Positions 1-48,161 of a DNA stretch of 48,161 bases are shown here, piece after piece. Source of the DNA: a virus. Lineage: Duplodnaviria > Caudoviricetes. Location: positions 1 to 48,161 of IMG/VR virus record IMGVR_UViG_3300009095_000021; one strand, 5' to 3'. Within the stretch, counting starts at the first letter, position 1, and the number at the start of each line of letters is the position of its first letter. The notes under the pieces were generated by a model, which worked only from the letters and a program-made list of their open reading frames with translations, ran no database searches and was not told the DNA's origin. The position numbers and the translations under genes are program-made.

Positions 1-123
1 TGAGCTGGCCCCGGCCAAGGTGCTGACCGGGTCGGTGTTGCAGTCACACGGCTTAACGTGCGCGTCGTAGCGGCTGTTAATGCCCGAGGCCAGCAGCGAC
101 CCCCCGGCAGAGTACAGCGCGCA
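1..123. repeat. Terminal overlap, exact copy of 48039-48161 (circular assembly overlap)
   Basis: Bases 1-123 match the last 123 bases exactly, and an ORF reads through the junction. Confidence 0.95.
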
Positions 124-210
124 TGTCACGACCGCCCGAGGGCAGAACCCAGGCTGATTAGCGCGGGCGCGCACCTCAGCCATTGCCTGTTCCAGCGACC
201 AAGCGCCCAT
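1..210 (-). CDS. dCMP/cytidine deaminase family protein, 5' part (continues across the junction to 47808; about 146 aa)
   Basis: Manual translation from ATG at 210: MGAWSLEQAMAEVRARANQPGFCPRAVVTCALYSAGGSLLASGINS..., in frame with the 47808..48056 ORF carrying HAE and PCxxC. Confidence 0.85.
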   Translation of the reverse strand, partial: MGAWSLEQAMAEVRARANQPGFCPRAVVTCALYSAGGSLLASGINSRYDAHVKPCDCNTDPVSTLAGASS

Positions 211-211
211 G

Positions 212-994
212 TTACCACGCCCCTTCGTTGCGCAGGCAGCGAATTGCACCCAGCCAGCCGTTGGCCTCGCTGAACTGAGGGCCGTCATAGTTGGGGCCGG
301 CGTGCTCAGTGACATACGCCTTAAGGATGGCATCAGCCTTAGGCGCTTCGCCGTTGAAGATATGCCCGCTGACCGTGTGATGATAGTACGCCCCAACGGC
401 GACCTGCAGCAAGTCCGCTACCTTTTCCTGCAGTCGGGCAAAGACGTACACGTCCTGACAGACCGTGGTGGTGTAGTTGTTGGAGCGCATGCTAACCGTC
501 ATATCCAGCGCGCCGTTGCGAACGCGGAAGTTGAAGGCGTAGGTACACATGTATTCGCAGTTGGTCGTGCCGGCGTGCAGCGCGTCTGCAACATGACGGT
601 CATCCGTGCCCAACATCATGATGCAGGCGCGGCGGCTGTCGGGGTTGCGTTGCAGCTCGCGCACCACAAACGGCACCTGCTCCAGAATGCGCGGCCCGTA
701 GGCGGTGCAAAGGATGTCGTTAAACATGGTGCCGAAGTTGCCGGCGTTGGGGTTGAGCGCCTTCATTTCTTCAGACACCGCTACTTTGCCTGACAAAATC
801 CAGTCGGCCATCAAGCGGCTGAACTCATGGCGAAACGCCCGCACTGGGTTGGTGACGGCGCGCTCATCGATATGGAAAAACGGCTGCAGTTTAAACGTGT
901 GGTTGATCAACTCCATATCAGCAGCAAGGCGCGCGTTGATCAGGTTTGCGTGGTACACGTCTTCCCATGCTGCACTAAGGGCTTGTACACTCAT
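212..994 (-). CDS. Divergent thymidylate synthase / dCMP hydroxymethylase superfamily protein
   Basis: AYGPRI, PDSRRA, catalytic YMCT, MRSNN...D and SGHIF motifs of the TS fold; Asp at the dUMP/dCMP specificity position. Confidence 0.85.
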   Translation of the reverse strand: MSVQALSAAWEDVYHANLINARLAADMELINHTFKLQPFFHIDERAVTNPVRAFRHEFSRLMADWILSGKVAVSEEMKALNPNAGNFGTMFNDILCTAYGPRILEQVPFVVRELQRNPDSRRACIMMLGTDDRHVADALHAGTTNCEYMCTYAFNFRVRNGALDMTVSMRSNNYTTTVCQDVYVFARLQEKVADLLQVAVGAYYHHTVSGHIFNGEAPKADAILKAYVTEHAGPNYDGPQFSEANGWLGAIRCLRNEGAW

Positions 995-1938
995 TGCGCG
1001 GCCTCCTTTGTGAACGCTATGGCGTAGTGGCTAAAAGCCTCAATGTAGCCGCTGGGCTTGAACGGCACCGCTTGAACCTCAAACGCCACCACCTCTTTTT
1101 CCAACGTGTGGCCGGCTTCGGTCATGGCCGCTAAGCGCCATTCCAGGCGCAGGCCGGGAAACTGCTCTGCCACGATAAGAACGCCACCCACCTTCAGCAT
1201 GCGGTAGGCGTCTGCAATCATGCGGGCGCGGTCTTCGGCACCTTTGCAGTGCAGAATTTCGCTCATGATGACCATATCGAACAGGTTGTCCAGGTCTTCG
1301 GTCGGGTTGTTTTCGGTGCCCAGCGCATCACCCTCGCGCACCGTGATGCCCCAGGCGTCGGCAAGCTCGCGCGGGTTGCCCGGCGCTTTGTCAATGAGCC
1401 AGCCAATGGTGTTGGGGTTCAGTTCGCAGCAGCGTTTAACAAACGCGCCGTTGCCGCCGCAGTAGTCCAACACCAGCGGGTCAGCAACATGCTTAACCTG
1501 CAACGCCGCCCAGTTCAGCAGTTCAGGCAGGTAGGCGTTGGAGTAGTTTTCCAGGCCGTTGCGCAGCTGGGCGTACATGGCGGGGTCGGTAGCGTTGCCG
1601 TTGAGCTGGTGCCCAATCATGGCAAGCTCATACTCCAGCAGCGCGGCGCACTCTGCCACGTTGACACCCTGCTTAGTGAGCTGAACGCCTTTTTGGTCGG
1701 GCGTTGCTACTAGCAGACCCATGCGCGCCCAGGCGGCGGCAACAGCGTCAACAGCACCGGGCGTTGCAGTTTCCCAAACCTTGTCACGGCTGCCCTTGGC
1801 CAGTGCCACCAACGTCCAAAGCGCTTCCAGCATGCCGTACAGCGATGGGCCGTGCTCGCTTACAGGATAGCGAAACTCCATGCCGGTCTTGAAAATACTC
1901 TGCGCCTGTTGAAGGGCAGCGGGTTTTGTCGGTTGCAT
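991..1938 (-). CDS. Class I SAM-dependent methyltransferase (O-methyltransferase-like, N-terminal helical domain)
   Basis: VLDYCGGNG (motif I), WLIDK, EGDAL, FDMVIMSEILH, AYRMLKVGGVLIVAE; no DNA-MTase PC or NPPY/DPPY motif. Confidence 0.85.
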   Translation of the reverse strand: MQPTKPAALQQAQSIFKTGMEFRYPVSEHGPSLYGMLEALWTLVALAKGSRDKVWETATPGAVDAVAAAWARMGLLVATPDQKGVQLTKQGVNVAECAALLEYELAMIGHQLNGNATDPAMYAQLRNGLENYSNAYLPELLNWAALQVKHVADPLVLDYCGGNGAFVKRCCELNPNTIGWLIDKAPGNPRELADAWGITVREGDALGTENNPTEDLDNLFDMVIMSEILHCKGAEDRARMIADAYRMLKVGGVLIVAEQFPGLRLEWRLAAMTEAGHTLEKEVVAFEVQAVPFKPSGYIEAFSHYAIAFTKEAAQ

Positions 1939-1940
1939 GA

Positions 1941-3248
1941 TTACACCTTTGCTTTCAAGTGAGGGAGGACAAATTGACTGATATACAGGTCAATGTCAAG
2001 GGTGCTGGAGTGGTGCATGTCGTACACTTCAACCACGCCTTGCGGCATGAGCACCGGCTCTGCGCCCTGGAACAGCGCTACAAAGTTTTCATACACAGCG
2101 CTGGCGTTTTCCAGGTCAGGGCCGTGCAGCTCTTTGCGCGTTTGACACATGCGCGTGTAGTTTTCCAGCCATGCCGCGTTATCACTCGGCAGGGCAAAGA
2201 GGTTCAACGCCGCTGCGCCTTCGGTCATCGTCTTCCAGTGGATGACCTGTTCCATATCGTACTCGCCAGCACGGTACACGTTGGAGTACACAGGGTGCGA
2301 CATCCAAGGGCGCTCCAGCACCACAACGCAATGCTCAGCCAGCGCCTGGGCGTAGGCAATGGCGTGGGCGCGGTAGTTGTGCATAACGCGCGCCAGCTGA
2401 GGCGACCAAGTCAGGTGGATGTACTGGCCACCCGTGACTTCAACGATACGCTTGGCCAAGGTGGTCTTGCCGCTTGCGTCGGGGCCGTCAATGGTGATCA
2501 GGCCGCAAATGCTGGCCGTATCGATGTAGACTTCTTCGCCATGAATGAACATGGGCACGCTACCCTCAGGCACATGCGGCTTGTACGGGCCTTTGCCCAC
2601 AAGGTCGCCCAGGTACGGCGGCAGCCAGTCGTCAGGCTTGGTAATTTCCATCATGTGCTCAACGTCGTGGCCTTGCTCTTTAAGCAGGGCGCGGCGGCGT
2701 TGTTTGGCCGGGTCAACGTTTTTGGCCATGTTGGCAGCATGCACGCGGCGGACGGCTTCGTCAATGTCAAAGCCATGCAGCAGCGCAGTAGCGGTGAAGG
2801 CATGCAGGGCCAGGGCCAGGGCGCGGTACTGCAAGTCCAGGTCGCCGGTTGCTGCAACCGTTTCAAAGCGCGTTACAGCGCTGCTGTGCAGCTGCAGACG
2901 CAGGGCGCGTTCGGCAGGTGATAGCATGCGCGGCGGGCCGTCATACAATACCTGTTCGCCAACGATGTTAAGCTTTTCAAAGTGCAGGCCCATGCGGTGG
3001 GCGGTGCCAGCCAAGAAAATCAGTTCGTCGGCCAGTCCGTCCAACATGTCTTCCAGGTCGGTAGCGTCGGCGTATTCCTTGGCTTCTTCGCGATGGCATT
3101 CCAGGCGAAACGCCAGTTCTGCCGAGGTCAGGTTGCGCTTTGGGCCGTCATAGGCCAAGCCAAACTTGGTATGGAACTGTTCGAGCATCTGATGAATGCT
3201 CATGGCTTCAAACGGTGACGTGTCGTACACCAAATACGTGGCTTTCAT
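1941..3248 (-). CDS. MazG-like all-alpha NTP pyrophosphatase fused to dNMP (thymidylate-like) kinase
   Basis: N-terminal EEAKEY...DGLADEL...VHAANMAK...KPDDW; C-terminal ITIDGPDASGKTT P-loop and LERPW. Confidence 0.8.
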   Translation of the reverse strand: MKATYLVYDTSPFEAMSIHQMLEQFHTKFGLAYDGPKRNLTSAELAFRLECHREEAKEYADATDLEDMLDGLADELIFLAGTAHRMGLHFEKLNIVGEQVLYDGPPRMLSPAERALRLQLHSSAVTRFETVAATGDLDLQYRALALALHAFTATALLHGFDIDEAVRRVHAANMAKNVDPAKQRRRALLKEQGHDVEHMMEITKPDDWLPPYLGDLVGKGPYKPHVPEGSVPMFIHGEEVYIDTASICGLITIDGPDASGKTTLAKRIVEVTGGQYIHLTWSPQLARVMHNYRAHAIAYAQALAEHCVVVLERPWMSHPVYSNVYRAGEYDMEQVIHWKTMTEGAAALNLFALPSDNAAWLENYTRMCQTRKELHGPDLENASAVYENFVALFQGAEPVLMPQGVVEVYDMHHSSTLDIDLYISQFVLPHLKAKV

Positions 3249-3758: not shown

Positions 3759-4790
3759 TTAGAGCGCAAGCTTGTCGGCTGGAGCTTTGGCTGACTTGGT
3801 CGCAGGCTTCTTAGCCGGTGCTTTGGCAGCGGGCTTTGCAGCAGCTTTGGCACCGGGCTTTGCAGCGGCCTTGGCGGCAGGCTTCGGCAGCGGCTTTGCA
3901 GCAGCTTTAGCAGCGGGCTTGGCCGGGGCTTTGACTGGAGCAGCAGCGGCCTTTTCAGCGTGCTCTTTCCAGTATTCGCCATGCGGGCCTTTCTTGGCCA
4001 GGGCCAGGTTGGCCAGTGCCCATTCGCGGTGCTCAGTGGAGCCGACCGCAGCAAATTTTGCTTCGATCTTTTCTTCCACGAACAGTTCGCGGCGGTACTT
4101 GGTGCAGTGCTTCTTGTCAGCGGCGGACTCCGGGAAGTCCTTGTGGACAGCGGCCAACACTTCAGCGTCGGTTTTGCCCTTGATGATCAGCGCGCGGATC
4201 AGGTCTTTTGCGGTTTTGCGTTCGGCGGTCTTGGCCATGATAGTGATTCCTGTTTCGTTGATTAGGGTCAGCAAAGCTGCTATTGGTAGCGACAAATGGT
4301 CGCCGCGTTTCATACCGTTACCAAGGTCGCCAGCCAGTCGAATGACAACCATGGGGCCGAGTTTAGAGGTGTCAGTGGAAGTTGTCAAGGCATCAGTGCC
4401 CGCAACGTGTTCGTCAGCCGGCAGACTGTCGGCCAGTGCTTGCGCGTTTAGTTGCGAGCACAGCAGAGCAGCGGCCTTTTCAGACTTTTTGGAGCCGGCC
4501 AGCTCGCCACCTGCGCGGCTGACAATGGCGTACTCCGACTTGATCTTTTCGATGTAAAACGGTTCGCCCTTGCAGCGAGTGCAGGCACCGCCCTCAATAG
4601 GCAGCGGTGGAAGGTGGCTATCACCCCAGACCTTAACCCCGTTCGGCAGCTTGGGGGTGCTTACACGGTCAGTGCAGAGCGCGCCGTTGCAATAACCACA
4701 AGTGGCCAGTTCAAAAAGGGTTTGGGTCGGTGCGTGAAAATGGCTTTGCGGCGTGGCTTTCCAGTCGTTGACGTATTCAATGGTGCTCAT
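3759..4790 (-). CDS. Cys-rich (CxxC x2) protein with C-terminal histone H1/AlgP-like KPAA repeats; probable internal start at 4238
   Basis: GGAG RBS before ATG 4790; AGGA RBS before in-frame ATG 4238; C-terminus KPAAKAAAKP repeats. Confidence 0.7.
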   Translation of the reverse strand: MSTIEYVNDWKATPQSHFHAPTQTLFELATCGYCNGALCTDRVSTPKLPNGVKVWGDSHLPPLPIEGGACTRCKGEPFYIEKIKSEYAIVSRAGGELAGSKKSEKAAALLCSQLNAQALADSLPADEHVAGTDALTTSTDTSKLGPMVVIRLAGDLGNGMKRGDHLSLPIAALLTLINETGITIMAKTAERKTAKDLIRALIIKGKTDAEVLAAVHKDFPESAADKKHCTKYRRELFVEEKIEAKFAAVGSTEHREWALANLALAKKGPHGEYWKEHAEKAAAAPVKAPAKPAAKAAAKPLPKPAAKAAAKPGAKAAAKPAAKAPAKKPATKSAKAPADKLAL

Positions 4791-4836
4791 GACGGGGTTT
4801 CTCCAGTTGAGTGTAGACCAGTGCGGCCTGACACGC

Positions 4837-4865
4837 AATGTAAACGACCCGTGGCAACGTGTCCA
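4837..4865 (-). promoter_or_regulatory. Sigma70-like promoter TGGACA-N17-TACATT
   Basis: Consensus-like hexamers with 17 bp spacer, upstream of the CTCAACTGGAG RBS of the 4790 gene. Confidence 0.65.
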
Positions 4866-4917
4866 CCCCCGCGAATAGACCGAATCGCTATTAAACACGA
4901 CTGTGTAATTCGCTTAT

Positions 4918-5071
4918 GGAATTTGCAGCGGTTTCTCTTACACGGCGTTTAACAGACCTTGACCAAAATCCTTTGGCGTCTTCTCTTAAACGGCGTGTAA
5001 GAAACCTTGCCGCAAATCCTTTGGCGTCTTCTCTTAAACGGCGTGTAAGAAACCTTGCCGCAAATCCTTTG
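4918..5071. repeat. 48-bp tandem repeat (2 perfect copies, 1 degenerate) containing an imperfect palindrome
   Basis: Unit AAATCCTTTGGCGTCTTCTCTTAAACGGCGTGTAAGAAACCTTGCCGC at 4966 and 5014, partial at 5062. Confidence 0.9.
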
Positions 5072-6505
5072 TCAACTTTTCTTAGACGCCCGGTAACGCT
5101 GCACCGCTCTTTTAAAGTCCTGCTGTGCTGCGTCTTTTGTTGCAACGCGGGCGGCCATGACTTCGTCCACCGTGCCCTCGGCTACTATCTGATGCACCCT
5201 GACACAACGGCCCTTAAAGCCTTGCCTGTATATGCGCTTAATGTACTGCAGCCATGCCTCCAAATCCCATGTGCCAGCAAACCATACGATGTCAGCGCCC
5301 GGCCCTTCTTGCAAGTTAAGCCCGTGCGATATGGAACCGGGGTGGCCCAGCAAAAAGCGCAGTTGGCCTTTGTTCCACGCCGCTTCCAGCCGCGCACCTT
5401 CAGCAGGTGTTACACCTGATCCTATGTGCGGCACATTCTTAACGCCGAACTCTTTTTGCAGCGCGGCTCTTATGCGCACAAGGTCATGGTGAAAGTCATA
5501 CGCGATTAAGAGCGGCTTACCCTGCAGCTCATCAGCAAGGTCTATTAGCGCTTCAAGCTTGGCGTCGTGCAGCGCGTACCACGGCCGGCGCGCCTGGGGC
5601 AGCGGCTTCTGGCCCTCTTCTGTTGCGTGGTACAACGCGCCGTTGGCAATCTGCCTGCACGCCATTGTTGCAACAGCTGAGTTTTTCAGCTCCACCGCGT
5701 CTTCATCGATTTCAGTGAACAGGTCGTTTTCGGCTTCGGTGTAATGCTGCATGGCCTTGGCAGGCAGTTGCACCGTTATCGTATGAAAGGTCAGTGCTGG
5801 CATGTCCAGGTAGTCTTCGGCTTCCATAACAAGGCACATATCAGACGCGCGGCGATATATGTTGTCCCGTTGCTTGTCGCCCGCTATTTCCCATTTCTTG
5901 CCCATGTAGCCCGCTTTCCTGAAGTATTGGTTGCGGAAATGGGTGATCTTTGCGCCGAACTTCTGGCCCTTGTCAACGATTAAGAACTGTGACCACAAGT
6001 CCATCAGGCTGTTAGGGGCGGGGGTGCCGTTGAACACAAAGCGGTGGGTGAACTTAGCCAGCCTGGGCTTTAACAACCGCAACCGCCGACCGGCCGGGTT
6101 CTTAAACTTGCCCGACTCATCGACGATTAGCATATCAAACGGCCAGTTACGCTTGCCCTTGAGCGCGATGGTGAACAGCCATTTGAGACCCTCGGGGTTG
6201 ATTATGTACATGTCAGCTGGCTGGCTCAGCTCATATTCTTTGTTGGCCCCGTGCAGGATACGCGCCTTCATGCCACGGGCGAACCCCCATTTACGCAGCT
6301 CTTTGGGCCAGACCGTGTAACAAGGGCGCAGCGGTGCAACAACCAACGCGGCCTTGACCCGGCCCATGCGCTGCAAGGACTTCAGTATGCGCAACCCGAT
6401 TACCGTTTTACCAAGGCCGGGGTCTAGGAACAGGGCTAAGTTACCGCGTTTAACACCTGCCGCAATGGCGTTCAGCTGGTACATGTGCGGCACAAACAGC
6501 GTCAT
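5072..6505 (-). CDS. SNF2-family (SF2) helicase
   Basis: DPGLGKT Walker A, IVDES, GTPAPN, HGLNLQ and RIYRQG motifs. Confidence 0.92.
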   Translation of the reverse strand: MTLFVPHMYQLNAIAAGVKRGNLALFLDPGLGKTVIGLRILKSLQRMGRVKAALVVAPLRPCYTVWPKELRKWGFARGMKARILHGANKEYELSQPADMYIINPEGLKWLFTIALKGKRNWPFDMLIVDESGKFKNPAGRRLRLLKPRLAKFTHRFVFNGTPAPNSLMDLWSQFLIVDKGQKFGAKITHFRNQYFRKAGYMGKKWEIAGDKQRDNIYRRASDMCLVMEAEDYLDMPALTFHTITVQLPAKAMQHYTEAENDLFTEIDEDAVELKNSAVATMACRQIANGALYHATEEGQKPLPQARRPWYALHDAKLEALIDLADELQGKPLLIAYDFHHDLVRIRAALQKEFGVKNVPHIGSGVTPAEGARLEAAWNKGQLRFLLGHPGSISHGLNLQEGPGADIVWFAGTWDLEAWLQYIKRIYRQGFKGRCVRVHQIVAEGTVDEVMAARVATKDAAQQDFKRAVQRYRASKKS

Positions 6506-6810: not shown

Positions 6811-7007
6811 GCAGGACGCCTCCAGTTAAACCGCTTGAGCGCCGCGTTCATGCGTCGGGCCAGCTTAATCTCTGCTTTGACTTCTGGCAGTAGGTAACGC
6901 ACACAACCCGCGTTAAAGCGCATACCAACAAGGCGCGCTGGCACCCACCAGCCTTTACACATTCGCATACGTGGCTTGTTCATTTCCTGTACCTCGGGCC
7001 TTCCCAA
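6807..7007 (-). CDS. Small hypothetical protein (likely start ATG 6983)
   Basis: Fills the gap between polymerase and VRR-NUC with overlapping start/stop codons. Confidence 0.5.
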   Translation of the reverse strand: MGRPEVQEMNKPRMRMCKGWWVPARLVGMRFNAGCVRYLLPEVKAEIKLARRMNAALKRFNWRRPA

Positions 7008-9097
7008 CCTTCACTAGTCACCGGCAAATCACCGGCCCATTTTGGCAGCGTACATAGCAGCATCTCAAAATCCTTAAGCGAACCAAAGTCTTCGTCATCC
7101 TCACTGGCCGCTTCGTCGTGTACCGTCATGATCAGGTAGTAGCCTACGCAGTCCAGCAGCAACATACCAAACGCCATGAGGTCACGGGCCACACCCTGGG
7201 TCACGTTTTCGGTCAGCTTCCCGCCGTAGGTGGACAGTTCACCCCATTTGTGTGTCTTGCTGTGGCAGCCTTGGTAAAACAGCTCATAGCTCAGCTCGCC
7301 CCACTTGAAACTTTCGCGCACAACCGGGAACGGGTAGCCTGTTGTGTGCCCTGATGGGAAGCGGCAGAGTAGTATAGGCATTTTACCGTAGCGTGTCATC
7401 TTGAACTTAATGCCAAGATAGTTTGTTACACGGCCAGGGAAGCGTACCGCCTCAATGGCTACTGCCTCCAGCTTCTTCCAGAGCTTGGGCACCAGCGGGA
7501 AGCGCTTGCGGTACGTCTGAATGGATTTCTTAGCCGTGACCCGGTCGATGATGATGTTCGCCACCTCTTCGCAGCGGGTCTTAAACTTCTCATCACCCAT
7601 GCCGTAGCCTGCGCCCAGAATGGTTTCCTTACCCAGCGGCCGTTCATCTGATTCCTTGTCCAGCGTGTGCATGGGCACACCGTAGATTGCTGCCGCCATG
7701 TCCAGATAAATGTCTTCGCCGCGCCGGAAAATGTCCAACGCCCGCTGATCACCTGCTAGCCAGAGCAGCACGCGTGCCTCAATTGCCGAGTAGTCCGCTG
7801 ATTTCAGGTGCTTGTCCAGCATGGCGCAGATGACAGCGCGCAGCGAGCTGGTGAGGATTTCCATGGAATTGGCCAGCCACCATGTGTCCTTGCCTTTGGC
7901 CTGCCGCTCTTTCTTGTCGCGGGCCTCAATGTCAGCGGCCAGCTTGTCCAGCGCCTTGACGCAGCCCTGCTTAATGACGTTGAGCACGTCAACATAATCG
8001 ACCCACTTGGGCAGCTTCGGCCGGGGGAAGTTCTGTATCTGAATGCCCTTGCCACCCCACCGGCCAGTACGGGCCTTGTGGTAGTTCAGCAACTCGTGCA
8101 CCCGGCCGTCACTGGCAACGAACGACTTCATAGCCCCGAACTTGGCAACCGAGGAAGAGCCGGCAACCTTGTACAGCTGCAGCATGCGCCGCACCTTGGG
8201 CGGCACCGTGGTTTTGCGCAGGTACACGTCAACCGTTTTGCCTTGTAAGTTCGGCAGGATAACGCCCTGTGATGCCACCCAGGCTTTGACCTTCGCCCGT
8301 TGGGTGCACTTCTGGAACATGCCGCCGCTAAGCGCCGCCGCTTCAGCGTTGTACACCAGCTTGATTTGCGCCACTAGCTTGTCAGCCGCGTTGACCGCTG
8401 CCATGTCCAGGTACAGACCGCGCCAGTTCATGCGCATGGTCAGCCATGCAATGTTCTGCTCAAACGCCGGTAGGCCAGGCAGGATATTGTCAATCTCCAC
8501 CTCGGCTTTGGTGTCGCGAACGCAGTATACCTTAAAGTCTTCCCAATCCTGCGGGAAATCCCATGGCTCATTGAACCTGCCTTTGGCGTTGGGCTTGCAA
8601 AACAGCTTGATCAGGCGCTTGCCGTTGCCGTCCTTGAGGTTGGCCACCTGGAGCACCTCAGCGGCTTCCTCCAAGTTGGCAGGCAGCGCCAGGGCTTTGC
8701 ACTTGTCGGCAACGTCAAGCGTTTGCTCAATCTCAACGTCTGGCCAGCCCATGTGCGGTACGCACACATGCTTCCAGATGCAGTATTCAAAGTAGCTGTT
8801 AAACGCATTAAGAGCCGCGCCGCTGTTAACCAGCGTGAAAAGCGCGTGCGGGGGTGCGTCGCCGGGCAGCCAGAGCTTTGTGTCCTTTGGGTCGCCAGTC
8901 AGGCAGTAGGACATCATCAGCACGCGGGTGGAACTGTGCTGGCTGTACTTGTACGCGCCGACCGTGGGCAGGTCAAGCTTGCTGCGCGTCTCAAAGTCGA
9001 TTGTTACACGCCGCGCGCCTTGGCGTTGGACAGCCAAGGCCATGCGTGTTTTGGCTAGGTTGATTGCCTCAACCTGCCGAGGGTTGTATGAACTCAT
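6980..9097 (-). CDS. Family A DNA polymerase with 3'-5' exonuclease
   Basis: DFETRS ExoI, ARTGRW, motif A DYSAIEARV, motif B RPLGKETILGAGYG, motif C VHDE. Confidence 0.95.
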   Translation of the reverse strand: MSSYNPRQVEAINLAKTRMALAVQRQGARRVTIDFETRSKLDLPTVGAYKYSQHSSTRVLMMSYCLTGDPKDTKLWLPGDAPPHALFTLVNSGAALNAFNSYFEYCIWKHVCVPHMGWPDVEIEQTLDVADKCKALALPANLEEAAEVLQVANLKDGNGKRLIKLFCKPNAKGRFNEPWDFPQDWEDFKVYCVRDTKAEVEIDNILPGLPAFEQNIAWLTMRMNWRGLYLDMAAVNAADKLVAQIKLVYNAEAAALSGGMFQKCTQRAKVKAWVASQGVILPNLQGKTVDVYLRKTTVPPKVRRMLQLYKVAGSSSVAKFGAMKSFVASDGRVHELLNYHKARTGRWGGKGIQIQNFPRPKLPKWVDYVDVLNVIKQGCVKALDKLAADIEARDKKERQAKGKDTWWLANSMEILTSSLRAVICAMLDKHLKSADYSAIEARVLLWLAGDQRALDIFRRGEDIYLDMAAAIYGVPMHTLDKESDERPLGKETILGAGYGMGDEKFKTRCEEVANIIIDRVTAKKSIQTYRKRFPLVPKLWKKLEAVAIEAVRFPGRVTNYLGIKFKMTRYGKMPILLCRFPSGHTTGYPFPVVRESFKWGELSYELFYQGCHSKTHKWGELSTYGGKLTENVTQGVARDLMAFGMLLLDCVGYYLIMTVHDEAASEDDEDFGSLKDFEMLLCTLPKWAGDLPVTSEGWEGPRYRK

Positions 9098-18396: not shown

Positions 18397-19041
18397 ATGA
18401 AACTTGAAATTCGCGACGCTATGCCGCTGGCCCGCTACGCTGTCAAAGACCTTGACGGTGTGCCTGAGTCGCCATGGCTGCACTGGGGCACATTTGTTGA
18501 ATGCGCTGAGTACATTCAAGAGCACAACCCTAAAGACCTAACCAACAAAATGTGCGACGCGCTCAACGCCCAGTCTGGCCCAACGCATATGGGTGAGCCG
18601 GTGTTGCGCCGTGTAGGCACGCACCCCGCCCTGGCTGCGCCGTATGGTGTTGAGACCGCTAAGCGGCTTGTAAACTACTATCGTATAGAGTTCCCTGAGG
18701 TCTACGCTGTGTTCCAAGCTGCTGAAATAAGCGGCCGCTGCCCGCCACCTAAAGAAGCCCCGGCCCGCTCGCTGGAGGCACATTTGCTGCAGGTGGAGTT
18801 GAACAGCACCGGGCCAGAGAACCCGTTGCGCCAAAGAAAGATTAACCGCTTTGAGCTTGTTGCGCTAGAATGGTGGCGAGCCCGCCGCCCTATGGACTGG
18901 AGTTCGGTGGAGCATGTGATGAACCCCACCATCAACACCCACACCGCCGCTGAAGCCAAAATGGCGGCCATGGCTGCAGAGCTGTTCATGCAGGCGTGCG
19001 AAGTGGGCCGACTGACCTTTGAAGCCCCGGTGCAGCTATGA
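18397..19041 (+). CDS. Hypothetical protein
   Basis: 214 aa ORF with GGAG RBS; stop overlaps the denV start. Confidence 0.65.
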   Translation: MKLEIRDAMPLARYAVKDLDGVPESPWLHWGTFVECAEYIQEHNPKDLTNKMCDALNAQSGPTHMGEPVLRRVGTHPALAAPYGVETAKRLVNYYRIEFPEVYAVFQAAEISGRCPPPKEAPARSLEAHLLQVELNSTGPENPLRQRKINRFELVALEWWRARRPMDWSSVEHVMNPTINTHTAAEAKMAAMAAELFMQACEVGRLTFEAPVQL

Positions 19042-19601
19042 CCCGTATCAATACCATTGACCCCACCCTGTTGACCAACCAATGGCTGGCAGCCGAGTAC
19101 CGCGAACTGCCCCGTGTACTAAATGCAGTAGCGCGCAACCTGGGCGAAGACGTTAAGGTTGAAGCTCAGGTGCCACCCACCTACCGCATGGGCCAGGGCC
19201 ATGTGACCTTCTTTGTGGACAAGCTGTTGTACCTGTACAAACGCCATCAGGTGTTGTCAGCTGAAATGGTGTTCCGCGCTGCCACTACTGGGCGCAAGCT
19301 GGAGCTGTCCATTGACTGCCTTGAGGTGTACACCCAAATTGCCGCCAAGCGCCCCGACCTGTGTAAGGATTGGACACCAACGGCCGACGACCACTTTACC
19401 AACTTGGCCCGGCTGTGTGAGCGGTGGAACGACGCCAAGCGCCCGCCCCGCCTTAACGCCCAGGTGATGAGCAGCGAGGCTGATGCAATAAACTGGGTGA
19501 CAACCGTAGCGATTAAGCACAAACTCTACCCGGCGCGAGCGCTACAGCTCATGCTAAACTCACTGCGCGCCGCTGGGCGTATAACCACATTGGAGCAATG
19601 A
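19038..19601 (+). CDS. denV: Pyrimidine-dimer DNA glycosylase / endonuclease V
   Basis: MTRIN...LAAEYRELPRV...GQGHVTFFVDKLLYL..R...EM, matching the T4 DenV signature (catalytic Thr2 and Glu23). Confidence 0.9.
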   Translation: MTRINTIDPTLLTNQWLAAEYRELPRVLNAVARNLGEDVKVEAQVPPTYRMGQGHVTFFVDKLLYLYKRHQVLSAEMVFRAATTGRKLELSIDCLEVYTQIAAKRPDLCKDWTPTADDHFTNLARLCERWNDAKRPPRLNAQVMSSEADAINWVTTVAIKHKLYPARALQLMLNSLRAAGRITTLEQ

Positions 19602-47807: not shown

Positions 47808-48161
47808 TTAATCCATCCAACGCCAAATACGCCCTTCGGCTTTCCAGACGGCTTCAACCCCGTCGCGGTCGGGCCAGTCGCGCGACACGGCCAGCACTTG
47901 CACCGGGCTGGCCAGCAGCGAAACCAAACACGACTTGCAAGGCGCGCGGCTGACAACGGCGGTGTGGAGCTTAGACCACCCGCCCGTGCCAGCAGCCAGC
48001 AGCAGCGCCGTTATTTCAGCGTGCTGCGCTAGGCAAGTTGAGCTGGCCCCGGCCAAGGTGCTGACCGGGTCGGTGTTGCAGTCACACGGCTTAACGTGCG
48101 CGTCGTAGCGGCTGTTAATGCCCGAGGCCAGCAGCGACCCCCCGGCAGAGTACAGCGCGCA
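47808..48161 (-). CDS. dCMP/cytidine deaminase family protein, 3' part (starts at 210 across the junction)
   Basis: CLAQHAEITALL...SRAPCKSC, the zinc-dependent deaminase HxE and PCxxC motifs. Confidence 0.85.
   Translation of the reverse strand, partial: CALYSAGGSLLASGINSRYDAHVKPCDCNTDPVSTLAGASSTCLAQHAEITALLLAAGTGGWSKLHTAVVSRAPCKSCLVSLLASPVQVLAVSRDWPDRDGVEAVWKAEGRIWRWMD
48039..48161. repeat. Terminal overlap, copy of 1-123
   Basis: Exact sequence identity. Confidence 0.95.

Follow-up and report, generated by a model that had tools for sequence, protein, structure and literature searches.

The closest described relatives of the locus studied here are the 5-hydroxy-dCMP (5hodCMP) synthases, or dCMP 5-hydroxylases, which have the fold of thymidylate synthase (TS). 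According to the accessible parts of the report on these enzymes, gp48 of phage RB69 and gp80 of phage DLP3 make 5-hydroxy-dCMP, carry FMN, and take their oxygen from O2 (Lee et al. 2026, PMC13326640). The same parts give the replacement of D169 by Asn (D169N, in the numbering of E. coli ThyA, used here for alignment columns) as the diagnostic of the FMN/O2-dependent synthases, report that every one of nine diverse D169N homologues produced 5hodC in vivo, and state that a phage kinase was needed for efficient 5hodC incorporation. The words "methyltransferase" and "methoxy" do not occur in the accessible main text, and the IMG/VR homologues included in that work could comprise a member of the clade described below.

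The window, that is, the whole stretch of DNA analysed, is a complete phage contig of 48,161 nt with a terminal repeat of 123 nt (48039-48161 repeats 1-123). Pfam and PHROG scans of its ORFs detected structural genes of the myovirus type and a replication module with PolA, SNF2, Enc34-SSB, and DUF2800. In these scans no glycosyltransferase or NDP-sugar genes were found near the putative hydroxylase, whose neighbors are instead a methyltransferase (MTase), a kinase/MazG gene, and a deaminase (Table 1).

Table 1. Predicted genes of the nucleotide cassette and the DNA polymerase in the window
Feature	Position	Strand	Residues or remarks
Predicted dCMP 5-hydroxylase (5hodCMP synthase) family member, TS fold, 260 aa	212..994	-	M62/E147/C150/N173/D181/H211
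SAM-dependent methyltransferase (315 aa) with the fold of family-2 small-molecule O-methyltransferases and an N-terminal dimerisation domain	991..1938	-	H230, E258
435-aa fusion protein with an N-terminal dNTP pyrophosphohydrolase of the MazG/PRA-PH type and a C-terminal dNMP kinase (P-loop DGPDASGKT)	1941..3248	-	
dCMP-deaminase-family gene (146 aa as a whole), 5' part	1..210	-	Start 1 nt past the TS stop; crosses the terminal repeat
Same dCMP-deaminase-family gene, 3' part	47808..48161	-	HAE and PCxxC zinc motifs intact
Family A DNA polymerase, same replication module	6980..9097	-	

An earlier note on this DNA, based on a manual alignment with ThyA, had proposed that ORF 212-994 encodes a dCMP-specific enzyme departing from folate chemistry. 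The product matches Pfam Thymidylat_synt at E 2.8e-9 and displays the motifs MADW at residue 62, SRR at 120, YMCT at 148 (C150), and HIF at 211; its residues 170-181 read RSNNYTTTVCQD. When the protein was aligned with real members of the TS family, M62 came to lie on the column of E58, E147 on L143, C150 on C146, N173 on D169, and D181 on N177, and no intact Glu or Asp was found at the E58 and D169 columns. The note's reading of Asp for N177, of Asn for D169, and of a lost glutamate in MADW was thereby confirmed. N173, D181, E147, C150, R121/R122, R170/S171, and H211 are invariant in 41/41 close homologues and in 29/29 members of a second clade, in agreement with the claim that the catalytic Cys of YMCT and the RR and RS residues are kept. 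The E58 column is M, L, F, or Y in all 70 homologues, and E58 and D169 are both absent from every one of them. Because of this invariance, the changes at the E58, L143, D169, and N177 columns are, as far as sequence can tell, not due to chance. The change of HxY to HIF is present as the note had stated, but it is not diagnostic, as the column varies within the family (F/L/I/V/Y) and gp216 of phage RL38J1 retains Tyr.

The E58, L143, C146, D169, and N177 columns are occupied in the same way in RB69 gp48 and RL38J1 gp216, the latter reading AFADWILSG where the window protein has LMADWILSG. Structure prediction pointed in the same direction. The AlphaFold model (pLDDT 96) was closest by VIA-align to AfhB of phage HY126 and not to ThyA, with 9iqc first (Z 24.5, rmsd 2.0, 217 aligned), followed by 9iqu (23.6), MilA (21.8), and ThyA (~20), and the clade profile searched against PDB also placed AfhB best (9iqu, E 3.4e-34), ahead of MilA (7.2e-24) and ThyA (2.6e-9). 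MilA was marginally ahead of AfhB in Foldseek by E-value, and the two were tied in phmmer with a single sequence. This position of MilA among the top sequence and Foldseek matches is what would be seen if the protein were an ordinary CH2-THF-dependent dCMP hydroxymethylase of the MilA or T4 gp42 type. MilA, however, retains E58 and D169 (AEALW, RAND), both of which all 70 homologues lack, the profile and VIA-align prefer AfhB, and a quick tree set all D169N rows apart from the four D169 rows (SH-aLRT 99, with long branches). We consider such a hydroxymethylase very improbable and rejected it, M62 and N173 replacing E58 and D169.

By its sequence, the product of ORF 212-994 thus appears to belong to the 5hodCMP synthases, with the full active-site signature of a dCMP 5-hydroxylase, and D181 is predicted to fix its specificity for cytosine. 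Both the dCMP specificity and the departure from folate chemistry proposed in the earlier note are in line with D181, M62, and N173, found likewise in the 5hodCMP synthases. Between the two co-substrates it had offered, oxidative hydroxylation stood, in that D169N homologues make 5hodC; SAM supplied by the neighbor is not supported, because proven hydroxylases share the same residues and the accessible main text of PMC13326640 mentions no methyltransferase. The kind of enzyme is not new: a family reported in 2025-2026 already accounts for the unusual active site, with D169N as its published marker in the accessible text (PMC13326640).

The model of the MTase (pLDDT 85) matched, over its full length in Foldseek (TM 0.6-0.7), the dimeric small-molecule family-2 MTases 3mcz, AlpH, DsyB, and MfnG, and family-2 methyltransferases were likewise matched in a profile search; identity to the fold matches is only 12-20%. 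The protein scores above the cut-off for PF00891, carries a GxGxG-type motif (DYCGGNG), and joins its N-terminal domain to a Rossmann SAM domain. H230 and E258 are each present in 66/68 MTase sequences. In family-2 O-methyltransferases, a catalytic His/Glu pair serves the methylation of phenol-like OH groups. Also among the fold matches are what we take to be enzymes methylating N, C (Fur6, BchU), or S, together with RdmB, a hydroxylase that does not methylate, and because of this breadth we hold O-methylation to be probable rather than assured. Judging from the model, the enzyme would probably methylate the 5-OH oxygen, and its architecture would suit a free nucleotide, the 5-OH of which is phenol-like, better than DNA. 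In a representative library, 39 clusters matched the MTase with E values up to 1e-30, most of them lacking genomic context, since the broad alignments A3 and A5 had diverged too far to be used in searching for loci; alignment A4 gave no match in GTDB genomes.

It is rather unlikely, in our estimation, that 5-hydroxy-dCMP is made but the MTase has another role (methylation of a nitrogen, action on a different metabolite, or a step without methyl transfer), or that little of the nucleotide enters DNA. The range of the fold, which at such low identity takes in RdmB and methyltransferases of N, C, and S, would allow another role, and the site depletion described below is fully compatible with unmodified DNA, as in KPP23 and Bcep781. 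Against this, a C5 hydroxylase (TS or U32) accompanies the MTase in 12/12 contigs with context, the conserved His/Glu pair is consistent with a phenol-like OH as the methyl acceptor, and the kinase and MazG neighbors point to dNTP supply.

Among the nine distinct contigs found through the enzyme (the window, L004-L007, L009, L011, L014, and L015), the MTase gene lies directly upstream of that for the D169N enzyme in every case, and the D169N enzyme was adjacent in 6/7 distinct contigs found through the MTase. A deaminase adjoins in 11/12 cassette contigs, which represent three phage lineages; the twelfth, L015, stops after the TS. These counts leave out L016 (a D169 TS), L017 (spurious), and repeats of counted contigs or viruses (L001-L003, L008, L010, L012, L013, L018-L021, L101, and L103-L107). 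In the other lineages the order varies, being MTase, TS-MazG fusion, deaminase in G005 and MazG, deaminase, MTase, TS in G006, and no dNMP kinase was found in either genome. In G004, a kinase, MTase, and deaminase precede a U32 protein, and no TS was matched in the genome, which is 55% complete, so that a TS may lie off the fragment. In the lineage of the window the deaminases have drifted from the motifs GYNG/HAEQN, and that of G006 is canonical; as drift also occurs in controls, it is not diagnostic.

The U32 protein of G004 is ~40% identical to the U32 protein of RB69/HY126-type phages, whose gene occurs in 222 phage records, that of HY126 among them, and U32 genes are also present in G003 and G006. 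In RNA, proteins of the U32 family hydroxylate pyrimidines at C5 and need no O2 to do so. As the U32-family genes at L022:7385-8494, L108:2-643, and L109:2829-3893 accompany or replace the TS hydroxylase, they suggest that proteins of the RB69 gp50 type are candidate oxygen-independent dCMP hydroxylases. RB69 gp50 is of the U32 type in the published cluster, as given in the accessible part of its description.

The same gene order could be read as evidence that SAM is the co-substrate of the TS-fold enzyme, which would activate C5 while the neighboring MTase delivers the methyl group, yielding 5-methyl-dCMP without folate. The tight coupling of the two genes (ORF 991-1938 overlaps the start of the TS-fold gene by 4 nt) and the presence of the presumed C-methyltransferases Fur6 and BchU in the family-2 fold agree with it, but the active site matches enzymes that hydroxylate without any MTase, and in the 55% complete G004 the MTase is retained together with a U32 gene, no TS having been seen there. 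This route is highly improbable and was rejected, since hydroxylases with the same residues need no MTase; more likely, the MTase acts on the hydroxylated product.

No glycosyltransferase of the GT1/GT2 type (PF00534/PF00535) was matched in 5/5 complete genomes, a divergent one among the unannotated ORFs being possible, and neither a second TS-family gene nor ThyX was found in the 4/4 complete genomes tested, with one TS-family gene each. Cultured relatives are distant: the best PolA match was 39.6%, a search of 50,697 phage records with three queries for the MTase and one for the deaminase gave no match, and no cultured match fixed the specificity of the MazG and kinase domains. A promoter and terminator scan stayed at chance level. 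A conserved 379-aa protein that belongs to no family and has a long Ala/Lys/Pro tail is encoded at 3759-4898 of the window and, in related loci, on the upstream side of the cassette; beside it, a direct repeat occurs in frames of the 4891-5145 region. An Endonuclease V-type pyrimidine-dimer glycosylase is encoded at 19038-19601 of the window and in G006 (L111:8937-9335).

To ask which base might be altered, observed/expected (O/E) numbers of restriction sites were computed with Markov expectations, large genomes being sampled at 60 kb. Control labels of RB69 and RL38J1 follow PMC13326640 and that of AXL3 follows restriction data (PMC7504290), as far as these sources were accessible. Those of 83-24, MW202510, and MW202621 derive from an N177D TS. 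For Xp12, SPO1, ViI, M6, and phiW-14 we used the labels we take to be established. GC-rich 6-mer palindromes had O/E values of 0.60, 0.54, 0.57, 0.31, 0.54, 0.71, and 0.88 in G000-G006, respectively, and of 0.90-0.99 in 7/7 cytosine-modifying controls, so that 6/7 cassette genomes (0.31-0.71) and 0/7 of these controls were depleted, G006 only barely; the p of 0.0006 overstates independence, because five of the seven cassette genomes are of one phage lineage. Values in T-modified controls (n=4) were 0.45-0.81 and in unassigned controls (n=2) 0.48 and 0.86, and depletion does not separate T-modified from unmodified DNA (p 0.84). In the window, GGCGCC occurs 0 times against 31 expected, CCGCGG 0 against 19, and CCCGGG 0 against 15, and strong depletion affected 13/47 testable palindromes compared with 19/1,896 non-palindromes. 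The T-containing sites AGGCCT, TTCGAA, and CACGTG are also missing from it, and its A/T gradient is weak (0.56/0.63/0.66/0.71). G004 is devoid of CCGG, CGCG, and GGCC, much like SPO1. Different sites are absent from different related genomes, which suggests continuing selection. Some non-palindromic 4-mers are under-represented in the window as well, namely TCCG/CGGA (0.46) and TCCC, TCTA, and TCTC (0.55-0.60), possibly through avoidance of other defence targets.

Since 6/7 cassette phages deplete GC-rich palindromes and 7/7 cytosine-modifying controls do not, the cytosines of the cassette phages look unprotected by this indirect measure and wholesale cytosine replacement seems unlikely. This bears on the possibility that the end product is 5-methoxy-dCMP, replacing part or all of the cytosine, with the deaminase merely supplying dUMP to the host ThyA, as in T4. 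That D181 sets cytosine specificity speaks for it, as do the absence of palindrome depletion in G006, the G/C-wide restriction resistance that goes with the sister AXL3 cassette according to the accessible data (PMC7504290), and the fact that, in the accessible text, every described product of dCMP 5-hydroxylases stays cytosine (PMC13326640). The depletion itself, the continuing selection suggested by the differing sites, and the lack of a detected dNMP kinase in G005 and G006, set against the phage kinase required for efficient 5hodC incorporation in that account, make 5-methoxy-dCMP fairly unlikely. The depletion would also conflict with 5-methyl-dCMP made by way of SAM, being lost in phages with a 5mC-type TS (Xp12, 83-24).

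The reading we prefer, with a probability of roughly 0.4, is that hydroxylase, MTase, and deaminase together make 5-methoxy-dUMP, a folate-independent thymidine substitute in the phage DNA. It is favored because the cytosines look unprotected, no dNMP kinase was found in G005 and G006, and a deaminase so regularly adjoins. The missing dNMP kinase would be easier to explain if the host Tmk handles a dUMP analogue. Linkage of the deaminase alone does not imply a uracil product, as one stands just as close in the AXL3-type cassette, where the DNA is resistant to G/C cutters. In the proposed pathway, the MazG-like domain would hydrolyse dCTP to dCMP, and may drain dTTP too. With C150 activating dCMP, FMN and O2 would then place an OH on C5, a step that is very probable, family membership coming from sequence and chemistry from homologues. 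The later steps are all predicted: the His/Glu O-methyltransferase would probably cap the 5-OH of the free nucleotide, with 5-methoxy-dCMP as the likely outcome of these two steps; if so, deamination before or after methylation would rather likely give 5-methoxy-dUMP; and the fused kinase, or host Tmk where the lineage has no kinase, would pass it to PolA, which would incorporate the modified nucleotide opposite A.

The enzyme is known, the cassette is new, and the base is a candidate new one. A methoxy-pyrimidine is the likely DNA letter made by the phage, as predicted here; more tentatively, several uncultured phage lineages would replace thymidine with 5-methoxy-deoxyuridine made from dCMP without folate, by a TS-fold flavin or a U32 Fe-S hydroxylase together with an O-methyltransferase and a deaminase. 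By title and abstract, the literature searched held no report of a phage methoxy-pyrimidine (5-methoxycytosine or 5-methoxyuracil); He 2026 and Mahler 2025 could mention one. Products of dCMP 5-hydroxylases described so far are all sugar-coated cytosines, and with a methyl cap the base would become 5-methoxycytosine or 5-methoxyuracil. The uracil form, if true, would bypass folate-dependent thymidylate synthesis, with a bearing on dNTP-depleting or thymine-targeting defences, and would provide a new DNA letter, an enzymatic route to a non-natural dNTP, and a third thymidylate-equivalent route besides ThyA and ThyX. The exchange of U32 and TS suggests oxygen-independent hydroxylation as the job of the unexplained U32 gene in RB69-type clusters. 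The cassette is directly testable, with four short genes and an LC-MS assay already published.

Compared with known systems, the window enzyme resembles RB69 gp48, DLP3 gp80, RL38J1 gp216, and HY126 AfhB (9IQU, 9IQC) in its TS fold, hydrophobic residue at E58, L143E, Cys, D169N, and N177D, at 26-31% identity to the described 5hodCMP synthases. These synthases are encoded in large genomes, either T4-like or of the Pootjesviridae, in which genes for sugar synthesis, glycosyltransferases, and a separate TS of the canonical kind also occur, whereas the cassette phages have 35-53 kb, no GT1/GT2 match, no second TS, a partner of O-methyltransferase fold, and no sign of cytosine protection. MilA and T4 gp42 share the fold, N177D, and an acidic residue in the L143 region, but unlike the window enzyme both still have E58 and D169 and depend on CH2-THF. 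Other combinations of these residues were also seen. Mycobacterium phage Papyrus gp76 (L039:3399-4400), a TS homologue with cluster relatives, has D169N with N177 retained (RSNN...PFN) and no E58, and the gp76 gene adjoins one for a nucleoside deoxyribosyltransferase; from its residues, gp76 is a candidate dUMP 5-hydroxylase. Gp182 of Sphingomonas phage PAU (L036:3384-4091) combines D169N, N177D, and L143E beside dTDP-rhamnose synthesis genes, a locus that is a candidate for rhamnosylated 5-hydroxycytosine. In Vibrio phage VAP7 (L091:2344-3246), an annotated thymidylate synthase with Asp at N177 (RSCD...PFD), clustered with a kinase and DHFR, is a possible dCMP methyltransferase.

The AXL3-type cassettes (L092:2620-6654 in AXL3, L090:3430-6672, and L038:1787-5682) cluster the same five functions as that of the window, namely MTase, MazG, kinase, TS, and deaminase. 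Their TS, unlike the window enzyme, keeps E58 and D169 together with D177, and their MTase is of a different family (E 2.8e-5 to alignment A2); the product is possibly 5-methoxymethyl-dC. AXL3, a cultured phage, has ThyX, DNA protected at G/C (resistance in the accessible part of PMC7504290), and no palindrome depletion. The proposed chemistry also has a counterpart in the tRNA mo5U pathway, in which C5 hydroxylation is followed by SAM-dependent O-methylation, as proposed for the cassette, and the hydroxylase TrhP, of the U32 type, acts before TrmR; U32 genes recur in G003, G004, and G006. The O-methyltransferase TrmR completes that pathway, as stated in the accessible part of its description (PMC6158493). 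TrmR acts on tRNA, whereas the phage MTase has the family-2 small-molecule fold and is part of a dNTP-supply cassette.
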